Below, piece after piece: positions 17,601 to 20,600 of a DNA stretch of 64,000 nt. The stretch is from NCBI RefSeq assembly GCF_057098645.1, contig NZ_CM169472.1. One strand, given 5' to 3'. Position numbers: made by a program. Within the stretch, counting starts at the first letter, position 1, and every line of letters starts with the position of its first letter.

Positions 17601-20600
17601 CGCCGTTTACGCTCAGGCCCAGCGTTGTATTTTGCGGATCGCCGGTGAATTCCGCCGCGGGAATAAACCCGGAAAGCGGACAAGAGTTATCAAACGCTTT
17701 AGCCTTTTCCCACGGCTGCCCGGCTTTCTTCATTTTTCCCTGAACATCACGCAACGTCAGATCGAGCGCCACGCCGTAACCGGCAATGGCTTTGCGGACA
17801 TGCTCTTCCGTAGCCTGACGCAGCGTCGCGCCAATCAACACCGCCAGTTCGACTTCATGATGAACTGAACCGAAATCGGATGGGATCGCCAATGGCTGCC
17901 GCAGATCGCACAGTGCCGTTTCTGGTTTAATAAACAGCACTGGCTCTTCGGGCACTGCGCTGCCCATCTCTTTAATATGTTTGGCATAGTTACTGCCAAC
18001 ACAGACTACTTTACTCACCGGATAATCCAGCAGCGCACCTTGCCAGTTGTGATGTTGATACATAACGTTCCCCTCACCTTATCGTGGATATGAAAACCCG
18101 CGCCGACAAAGATAATGCCACCGCCGGATATCGGTTATTTGTTAGTGTCGTCTGTTTTCTGCCCCATGACGGAAAGATGTTGCTTCAGCAAATCTTCGGG
18201 TGGTGGCGGTAACTGCAAATAGTAACCTTGCTCGGTTAATGCCTGTTTAACCTTTTCAATATCGGCATTGACCAGTTTCTTCCGCCCATCCAGCGGCAGA
18301 ATCATCGCTAACTGAGGCTGACCAAAACCTTTCATCAGTTCCTCAGGAACACGCGAAAAATCGTCTTTTTTTTCGACATATAAATAGGTCTGGTCACGCT
18401 TGCTGCTTCGATAAATCACACAAAACATACTTTTACTCTTTAAGATGCCAGGTTTTGGCATAAGCTAACATCAATGAAACCCGCGCCACAAGCCAGCCAG
18501 CTGTAGATTTCTACGTTTTGAACCGCCCCGGGAATCCTGGAGACTAAACTTCCTGAGAAAGAGGTAAACAGGATGACTAAAAATACTCGTTTTTCCCCTG
18601 AAGTCCGTCAACGGGCAGTCCGTATGGTTCTGGAAAGTCAGGGCGAATATGACTCACAATGGGCGACAATTTGTTCCATTGCTCCAAAGATTGGCTGTAC
18701 GCCGGAGACTCTGCGTGTCTGGGTTCGCCAGCATGAGCGGGATACCGGGGGCGGTGATGGAGGGCTCACCACCGCTGAACGTCAGCGTCTGAAAGAGCTG
18801 GAGCGTGAAAATCGTGAACTGCGCCGCAGTAACGATATCCTTCGCCAGGCTTCCGCTTATTTTGCGAAGGCGGAGTTCGACCGCCTCTGGAAAAAATGAT
18901 GCCACTGCTGGATAAGCTGCGTGAGCAGTACGGGGTCGGACCGCTATGCAGCGAACTGCATATTGCCCCGTCAACGTATTACCACTGTCAGCAACAGCGA
19001 CATCATCCGGATAAACGCAGTGCCCGTGCGCAGCGCGATGACTGGCTGAAGAAAGAGATACAGCGCGTATACGATGAAAATCACAAGGTATACGGTGTGC
19101 GTAAAGTCTGGCGTCAGTTGTTACGGGAAGGTATCAGAGTGGCCAGATGCACTGTGGCACGTCTCATGGCGGTTATGGGACTTGCCGGTGTTCTCCGGGG
19201 TAAAAAGGTCCGTACGACCATCAGCCGGAAAGCCGTTGCCGCAGGCGACCGCGTAAACCGTCAGTTCGTGGCAGAACGACCTGACCAGCTGTGGGTGGCT
19301 GATTTTACTTACGTCAGCACATGGCAGGGCTTCGTCTATGTGGCGTTCATCATTGATGTGTTTGCCGGATACATTGTGGGGTGGCGGGTCTCATCGTCCA
19401 TGGAGACGACATTCGTGCTGGATGCACTGGAGCAGGCGTTATGGGCCCGTCGACCGTCCGGCACGGTCCATCACAGTGATAAAGGTTCTCAGTATGTATC
19501 GCTGGCCTACACACAGCGGCTTAAGGAAGCCGGATTACTGGCATCAACAGGAAGTACAGGCGACTCGTATGACAACGCGATGGCGGAGAGCATCAATGGT
19601 CTTTACAAAGCGGAGGTAATACACCGTAAGAGCTGGAAAAACCGTGCAGAAGTGGAACTGGCCACACTCACGTGGGTGGACTGGTATAACAATCGACGAT
19701 TGCTGGAAAGGCTGGGCCATACTCCTCCGGCAGAAGCAGAAAAAGCTTATTATGCTTCCATCGGAAACGATGATCTGGCAGCCTGAGTTCACAGATAAAA
19801 CACTCTCCAGGAAATCCGGGGCGGTTCATTTTGTTGAGTCCATGCCCCCTTTATAAGTAATCCCCCCGGCAAAAATGCCGCGACGGGATTTTACCGAACG
19901 CAGGAAAGCCACTGGAATTCTCCCGTAAGGGATTGTTATATTATAACAGTTCATCGTACTCATTCTGAACAGGAGACTACCAATGAAAATCAAGAGCATC
20001 AGTAAGGCTGTATTGCTGCTTGCACTGCTAACCTCCACGAGCTTTGCTGCGGGTAAGAATGTCAATGTTGAGTTCAGAAAAGGCCATAGCAGCGCTCAGT
20101 ACTCCGGCGAAATAAAGGGATACGATTACGATACATATACCTTCTATGCCAAAAAAGGTCAGAAAGTGCATGTGAGTATCTCTAATGAAGGCGCTGATAC
20201 TTACCTCTTCGGGCCAGGAATCGATGATTCTGTTGATTTATCCAGATATTCCCCTGAACTCGATAGTCACGGACAATACTCACTCCCTGCTTCTGGCAAA
20301 TATGAGCTGCGAGTGCTGCAAACCCGAAACGACGCCCGTAAAAACAAAACTAAAAAATATAACGTCGATATTCAAATTAAGTAAATGTCAACCGACGGGG
20401 AGTCTCCCCGTCATAAACGTTGACGCCCCACTCCTCTCTGTCGCTCAAGAGGTTAATGACGAATAGAACATAATGTAAACAAGACATCACTCACGACACA
20501 TAAATAACATCTTTGTGGTGGTTTGATTGATTTTTCCACTCCGCTTACCATCTACACCAAAATAACGATCATCACGGCATAATTTTTCTTTAACATCGCA

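Follow-up and report, generated by a model that had tools for sequence, protein, structure and literature searches.

IS629 was first described in Shigella sonnei. In EHEC, small-scale diversification of the genome is driven mainly by this element, on which IS-printing strain typing is also based. Among the insertion sequences (IS) of EHEC O157 and O145:H28, IS629 is the most abundant (PMC3271280; PMC3893438; PMC9943667), and its IEE-assisted excision happens in EHEC (PMC9943667). Rump et al. distinguished three IS629 subtypes that lie 4 to 5% apart, one IS1203-like, one Shigella-like, to which the O55:H7 copies belong, and a third; IS1203 and IS3411 are treated as IS629 isoforms, and IS629 target duplications are 3 to 4 bp long, without a target consensus (PMC3271280). 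IS3411 and no fewer than 27 further IS elements are reported to have an interaction between an apical loop and an internal loop (PMC5009743). When a pseudoknot follows, U_UU.U ranks among the three tetramers most prone to shifting, and IS3-family elements commonly contain it (PMC4066793).

Here, we describe an IS element found in a 64-kb window, the whole stretch of DNA that was analyzed. Its sequence is best explained as an intact, apparently transposition-competent IS629 located in the 240-bp divergent ycgL-pliG spacer of an O145:H28-like Escherichia coli chromosome, a reading that we consider almost certain.

RESULTS

Boundaries and coding content of the element

Nucleotides 18519 to 19828 (plus strand) constitute a complete 1,310-bp IS3-family insertion sequence (Table 1). 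The 5' terminus is TGAACCGCCCCGGGAATCCTGGAGA, and the 3' terminus, TCTCCAGGAAATCCGGGGCGGTTCA, is its imperfect reverse complement. A repeat search and end-to-end alignment delimited terminal inverted repeats (IRs) of 25 nt each, which are complementary at 22 of 25 positions and have the tips TGAACC...GGTTCA. The chance expectation for a 22/25 inverted-repeat pair is ~0.01 when all pairs no more than 3 kb apart in 64 kb are considered. No further IS629 copies or other internal repeats were detected within the window.

The two genes of the element overlap at an ATGA sequence, and the orfB frame, which is -1 relative to that of orfA, is open from nucleotide 18833 onward. Leucine heptads read off the OrfA translation (L76, L83, and L90) are predicted to form a C-terminal leucine zipper, and the exact OrfA protein is present in at least 1,000 contigs in public collections. 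The DDE residues of OrfB are D136 (19301 to 19303), D195 (19478 to 19480), and E231 (19586 to 19588), with spacings of 59 and 36 residues, and K238 is located at E+7, as in the rve-type cores of the IS3 family. Every testable IS3-family hallmark is present in the element: a length within ~1.2 to 1.55 kb, imperfect IRs with TG...CA tips, orfA followed by a -1-frame orfB, a frameshift signal in the overlap, a DDE-K core, and an OrfA with a helix-turn-helix domain and zipper heptads. The span of 18519 to 19828 proposed in an earlier note on this DNA was exact to the base, and the IS3-type imperfect terminal repeats and overlapping orfA and orfB described there are those given above.

Table 1. Features of the IS629 locus, other IS elements in the window, and comparator copies of the element
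Feature	Position	Strand	Details
ycgL	18135-18428	-	97-aa annotated form, from RM9872 RefSeq annotation by alignment; start codon at 18428, 90 bp left of IS
Left target-site duplication copy (TTT)	18516-18518	.	Sequence and empty-site reconstruction
IRL	18519-18543	+	TG at outer tip; identical to IRL of IS629 comparators
orfA	18573-18899	+	108 aa; Pfam HTH_Tnp_1, 6.1e-13
ALIL (apical loop-internal loop) pseudoknot	18854-18970	+	Rfam RF01497, 120.2 bits (gathering 50), E 2.6e-32, full model length
U_UUU slippery tetramer	18860-18863	+	Inside overlap of orfA and orfB frames; UUU is the Phe97 codon (18861-18863) of orfA
orfB	18896-19786	+	296 aa from ATG, -1 frame; Pfam HTH_21, 3e-18, and rve, 4.8e-28
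IRR	19804-19828	+	CA at outer tip; holds the sole private substitution (19815)
Right target-site duplication copy (TTT)	19829-19831	.	Sequence and empty-site reconstruction
Predicted sigma-70 promoter, pliG	19890-19918	+	TTTACC-17-TGGAAT; SELEX catalogue; 62 bp right of IS
Predicted sigma-70 promoter, ycgLM	19940-19969	-	TTCAGA-18-TATAAT; consensus scan and SELEX catalogue
pliG (g-type lysozyme inhibitor)	19983-20384	+	Intact; 154 bp right of IS
IS2	20811-22141		1,331 bp; 5-bp duplication ATCAT; interrupts ycgJ ~45 nt from start
IS5-type element	~32222-33424		Maps inside ariR
IS21-family element	~56515-59154		Interrupts island
IS110-family transposase	60130-61326		In island stretch ~59903-61558
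Comparator, LC567824 copy annotated "insertion sequence: IS3 family IS629"			1309/1310 (99.92%)
Comparator, pO55 copy, O55:H7 CB9615			1306/1310 (99.69%)
Comparator, Shigella sonnei plasmid copy			1303/1310 (99.47%)
Comparator, NCBI (PGAP)-named "IS3-like element IS1203 family transposase" copy			1258/1310 (96.03%)

Frameshift signal

The overlap of the two frames contains a U_UUU tetramer, which ends 5 nt upstream of the first stem-loop of a predicted ALIL pseudoknot. Stem-loop 1 (18869 to 18885; loop AGUUCGA) and stem-loop 2 (18932 to 18970), the latter with an internal loop, are present in both the MFE and the centroid folds. The loop sequence GUUCGA (18875 to 18880) is predicted to be able to pair with UCGGAC (18936 to 18941) through six standard pairs, one of which is G-U. 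Relative to the GCUCGA/UCGAGC of the Rfam ALIL consensus, the window copy displays one compensatory double change and one G-U pair; the S. sonnei copy has an extra C>U change in the loop, with the pairing kept.

The 404-aa fusion protein that would result from a slip at U_UUU has an exact counterpart in NCBI, named "IS3 family transposase," in 258 contigs, a match that reflects annotation practice and agrees with the structure, and the fusion through the A6 run (18891 to 18896) was absent from the NCBI protein collections in an exact look-up. Frameshifting at this A6 run, which is located beside the orfA stop codon, had some plausibility in view of the ATGA overlap but was dismissed for three reasons: the ALIL begins upstream of A6, U_UUU lies 5 nt before stem-loop 1, and only the U_UUU fusion is public. 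Judging by the modeled structure, the motif, and the NCBI annotation practice, U_UUU is most likely the -1 frameshift site.

A private base in the right inverted repeat

At one base only does the window copy differ from all four comparator copies at once, and this is the T in place of C at nucleotide 19815 (element position 1297), which is position 14 of IRR. The change reduces the complementarity of the IRs from 23/25 to 22/25. The position 14 region of IS3-family ends binds transposase, and, as judged from its location, the substitution could lower mobility.

In the extreme, the copy would be complete in its genes and yet crippled as a mobile unit, with the C>T change weakening the binding of transposase and leaving the copy effectively fixed, although this copy could still supply transposase in trans. 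That the sole change with respect to the four comparators falls in IRR, at the expense of one complementary position, points in this direction, as does the distribution of the base in other genomes. An 89-nt right-end query matched at least 24,682 places in 4,071 genomes, and among the matches listed there was none of 89/89, the best full-length match being 88/89; one further record, which scores at least 99% without ranking first, is presumably a shorter match. Since no listed right end carries the T at 19815, no daughter copies of this element were seen. However, a recent insertion would lack daughters anyway, the IRs of IS629 are imperfect by nature, and the IRL of IS1203 deviates at the mirror position 14 (GGAAA versus GGGAA) in an isoform that is mobile. 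The T might also be a sequencing error. We consider it unlikely that the copy has been immobilized, and we favor an intact, apparently transposition-competent IS629.

Position of the element relative to the neighboring genes and promoters

The element is flanked by ycgL and pliG, as the earlier note had claimed for this intergenic location. A genomic-SELEX catalogue of constitutive sigma-70 promoters gives TTCAGA-18-TATAAT for ycgLM and TTTACC-17-TGGAAT for pliG (PMC3946193). Our consensus scan yielded one promoter-like site in the region (19969 to 19940), which is no excess over shuffled sequences, and this site is meaningful only because the catalogue gives the same hexamers for ycgLM. No promoter for the transposase genes was found at the consensus-scan threshold in the promoter/terminator scan of the region.

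Both predicted promoters, that of ycgLM and that of pliG, are located to the right of the element. Since the predicted ycgLM promoter is on the far side of the element from ycgL, the operon is probably uncoupled from this promoter, the two being probably separated by 1.3 kb of antisense IS sequence. pliG, which follows the transposase genes in the same orientation, retains its predicted core promoter.

This arrangement could also be viewed as a selected regulatory mutation, in which ycgLM would be silenced by promoter cutoff and/or pliG would be driven by read-through from the transposase genes. The separation of ycgL from TTCAGA-18-TATAAT (19969 to 19940) and the orientation of the transposase genes toward pliG are what such a mutation would need; however, both the ycgLM and the pliG promoters are predictions, and IS629 is without a target consensus, most of its insertions being neutral or mildly harmful (PMC3271280). 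Being known from one genome, the insertion gives no indication of selection or recurrence. Selection for an altered regulation is thus, in our opinion, quite improbable. A slim chance may also be given to a combined version in which the insertion would switch off ycgLM by cutting it from its sole predicted sigma-70 promoter while the IRR mutation would fix the copy, together making a stable heritable regulatory lesion.

Assignment to IS629

The 1,310-bp query matched 4,259 of the 5,426 genomes, with a median of 4 and up to 52 places per positive genome and a best identity of 99.9%. The IS629 feature of LC567824 has the same 1,310-bp boundaries, and its proteins, annotated as "IS629 transposase OrfA/OrfB," are identical to those encoded in the window. 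Because the window copy is 99.5 to 99.9% identical to IS629-type copies versus 96.03% identical to the IS1203-named copy, it is IS629 in the strict sense; comparison with annotated and named copies thus identifies the element as IS629 proper.

It is very improbable that the element is instead an IS1203 (or IS1203v/IS3411) isoform. Under ISfinder practice, elements are given one name if their nucleotide identity is above ~95%, and a value of 96.0% still satisfies this rule. The length and architecture are also equal and the ends nearly equal, and both IS1203 and IS3411 count as isoforms of IS629 (PMC3271280). Nevertheless, the IS1203-named copy matches at 1,258 positions of 1,310, compared to 1,309 for the annotated IS629 copy and identities of 99.47% and 99.69% for the S. 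sonnei and pO55 copies, respectively, and the O55:H7 copies are grouped with Shigella IS629 at ~4% from the IS1203-like subtype (PMC3271280). Of the initial designation of the element as "IS629/IS1203-like," the assignment to the IS629 group was borne out by the LC567824 match and by the range of 99.47 to 99.92%, whereas the IS1203 isoform part, at 96.03%, was not.

Target duplication and strain specificity

The empty site was reconstructed from 500 bp of left flank and the right flank, with the element and one TTT deleted, and the resulting 997-bp query was searched against 5,426 complete E. coli genomes. The construct, which spans ycgM, ycgL, and pliG, was 100% identical to O145:H28 chromosomes. 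Because the empty site with a single TTT matches these relatives at 997/997 positions, the 3-bp TTT duplication, previously described as possible, is real. The duplications of comparator IS629-group copies were CTGG (4 bp) and TTC (3 bp), and TTT falls inside the 3- to 4-bp range.

The empty site was found in 5,405 of the 5,426 complete genomes (coverage, ≥80%), and an occupied site was found in none of the 5,426 when a 2,601-bp query across both junctions was used (coverage, ≥80%). Exact PliG protein matches led to 10 distinct genomic places, in all of which the spacer was empty. Since IS629 is absent from the ycgL-pliG spacer in the 5,426 genomes, the insertion is strain specific and probably recent. 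The backbone to the left of the element was 100.0% identical over 18.5 kb to that of strain Z1323HEC0422 and 99.9% identical to those of O145:H28 strains, and the window was 99.9% identical to O145 strain RM9872 on either side of the element; by these identities, the host chromosome backbone is O145:H28-like.

Misplacement of an IS629 copy into the spacer during repeat resolution is hardly credible, even though a genome of a related strain can have up to 40 or more IS629 places, misassembly typically arises at such repeats, and the site is occupied in no other genome among the 5,426, given that the junctions are clean, the 3-bp duplication is perfect, removal of the element restores the ancestral spacer exactly, all of which is a signature of transposition unlike that of a collapsed or misjoined repeat, and that the copy has its own private base (19815 T).

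Other IS elements and the island in the window

In total, five IS elements occupy roughly 8 kb of the 64-kb window. The high IS load claimed previously for this DNA was confirmed, as IS2 and the IS5-type, IS21-family, and IS110-family elements were each found in addition to IS629; the island location proposed for these elements applies to the IS21-family and IS110-family copies but not to IS2 and IS5, which reside in two genes of the backbone, ycgJ and ariR, respectively. IS2 was also considered as a marker of lineage: it occurs near ycgJ/pliG in 15 genomes, but none of these is collinear in one piece, and no lineage could be assigned.

The island follows phoQ, starting past nucleotide 46359 and extending beyond the end of the window. 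Its genes include those for the small and large terminase subunits, an HNH endonuclease, a head-tail adaptor, a head closure protein, a portal, a protease, and a capsid protein, as well as those for a PerC-like regulator, SSB, a RepA-like helicase, and an integrase. Genes for a tail were not detected in that portion of the island which the window covers. Isolate 07-4299 has the same island but lacks an equivalent of the stretch from ~59903 to 61558.

DISCUSSION

The element is an already known one, IS629, behaving as expected; the novelty is confined to its insertion site, polymorphic at the strain level, and to a single IRR base. As the insertion is absent from 5,426 complete genomes, it could serve to mark a strain or sublineage. 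From the predicted promoter position, it may also have silenced ycgLM, an operon that is poorly understood. Beyond marker use and a possible ycgLM knock-down, the copy brings nothing new on IS biology.

For an intact IS629, expression and transposition would proceed as follows. Ribosomes translating orfA would occasionally slip by -1 at U_UUU (18860 to 18863), helped by the downstream ALIL pseudoknot, and would thereby produce the 404-aa OrfAB transposase; OrfA by itself would act as a regulator. OrfAB would bind the IRs and copy the element out as a circle, which would be pasted into a new target with cuts staggered by 3 to 4 bp, giving in this case the TTT repeat. We infer these steps from the biology of IS911, IS2, and IS3 and from work on IS629/IS1203v referenced in bioRxiv 10.1101/2023.06.07.543989.

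Comparison with known systems

The annotated IS629 copy is the same as the window copy in length, boundaries, OrfA, and OrfB, and the 3-bp duplication is within the published range for IS629. The window copy differs by the one IRR base (19815 T for C) and by an insertion site that no genome among the 5,426 shares. IS1203/IS1203v, the IS629 isoform of O111:H- and O157:H7, shares the length, the gene layout, and the frameshift region, in which one base of stem-loop 2 differs, and its IRR matches that of the window copy save for the private base. However, 52 substitutions over 1,310 nt separate the two, and their IRLs are unlike at two positions.

IS3411 is the IS629 isoform in which the ALIL pseudoknot was characterized, and the window copy fits the Rfam ALIL model at full length with 120 bits. 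The type of loop complementarity is shared, the likeness being drawn through the published description and the Rfam model; the window pairing is GUUCGA/UCGGAC, as opposed to GCUCGA/UCGAGC in the model consensus.

IS911, IS2, and IS3 belong to another subgroup than IS629 and differ from it in sequence. They nevertheless share with it orfA and orfB in phases 0 and -1, production of OrfAB by -1 frameshifting, the DDE motif, TG...CA ends, and short target duplications, and all of them are assumed to transpose by copy-out-paste-in by way of a circle. The signals for frameshifting are distinct: that of IS911 is A_AAA_AAG with a hairpin and that of IS3 is A_AAG with an H-type pseudoknot, whereas the IS629 copy in the window has a U_UUU tetramer with an ALIL pseudoknot.

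Variation in IS positions among close relatives

Between the window and its close O145:H28 relatives, IS positions differ in both directions. When the 18.5 kb at positions 1 to 18518 were compared with several O145:H28 genomes, the alignment fell into two pieces spanning ~19.84 kb, and therefore these genomes hold an extra IS-sized insertion of ~1.3 kb that the window does not have.

Several further IS elements were located in the window. IS2 is bracketed by a 5-bp duplication, ATCAT (20806 to 20810 and 22142 to 22146), and disrupts ycgJ ~45 nt past its start codon. Among the 5,426 complete E. 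coli genomes searched, 15, including that of a K-12 laboratory culture, carry IS2 close to ycgJ/pliG, and because none of these 15 aligns with the window as a single collinear piece, the data suggest that the region has been targeted repeatedly by independent IS2 insertions. By mapping onto strain 1916D18, the IS5-type element resides in ariR (ymgB), which is a biofilm/acid-resistance regulator; strain 1916D18 has its own IS5-like copy at a different place, in a DUF1398 gene.

Coordinates of IS elements, interrupted or split genes, and the island in the window
Feature	Position	Strand	Remarks
ycgJ	20487-20855	minus	Broken by IS2
IS2	20811-22141		Complete, 1,331 bp; inside ycgJ
Autotransporter adhesin gene	26543-28988	minus	Split, giving ORFs of 592 and 200 aa
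IS5-type element	~32222-33424		Inside ariR (ymgB); mapping onto strain 1916D18
IS5-type transposase	32373-33353	minus	
Island	46360-64000		Continues beyond window end; phoQ on one side, roxA on the other in relatives
IS21-family element	~56515-59154		Approximate ends; adjoins the beginning of the island's RepA-like helicase gene
IstB	56615-57613		IS21-family element
IstA	57387-59033		IS21-family element
IS110-family transposase	60130-61326		Within stretch ~59903-61558 (approximate ends)

The IS629 copy on an S. sonnei plasmid has a C-to-U change at element position 360, by which the apical loop of stem-loop 1 in the frameshift pseudoknot (apical loop-internal loop, ALIL) becomes GUUUGA. This loop retains its pairing with the internal loop via G-U, and the natural variant provides a small piece of support for the ALIL loop-loop interaction.

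The split autotransporter adhesin gene is an inherited pseudogene, since the annotation of its orthologue in the O145 comparison strain RM9872 likewise records a frameshift and an internal stop.

Island adjacent to phoQ

The phage-type genes of the island are restricted to head and packaging functions (TerS, TerL, HNH, adaptor, head closure, portal, protease, and capsid), and tail genes were not detected in the portion inside the window. A PerC-like regulator, an SSB, a RepA-like helicase, and an integrase are also encoded. The stretch containing the IS110-family transposase is absent from the same island in isolate 07-4299. The closest relatives of the island among complete genomes show only 94% to 96% identity across 76% to 79% of a 20-kb query. 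In its gene content, the island may resemble a capsid-forming PICI-type phage satellite.
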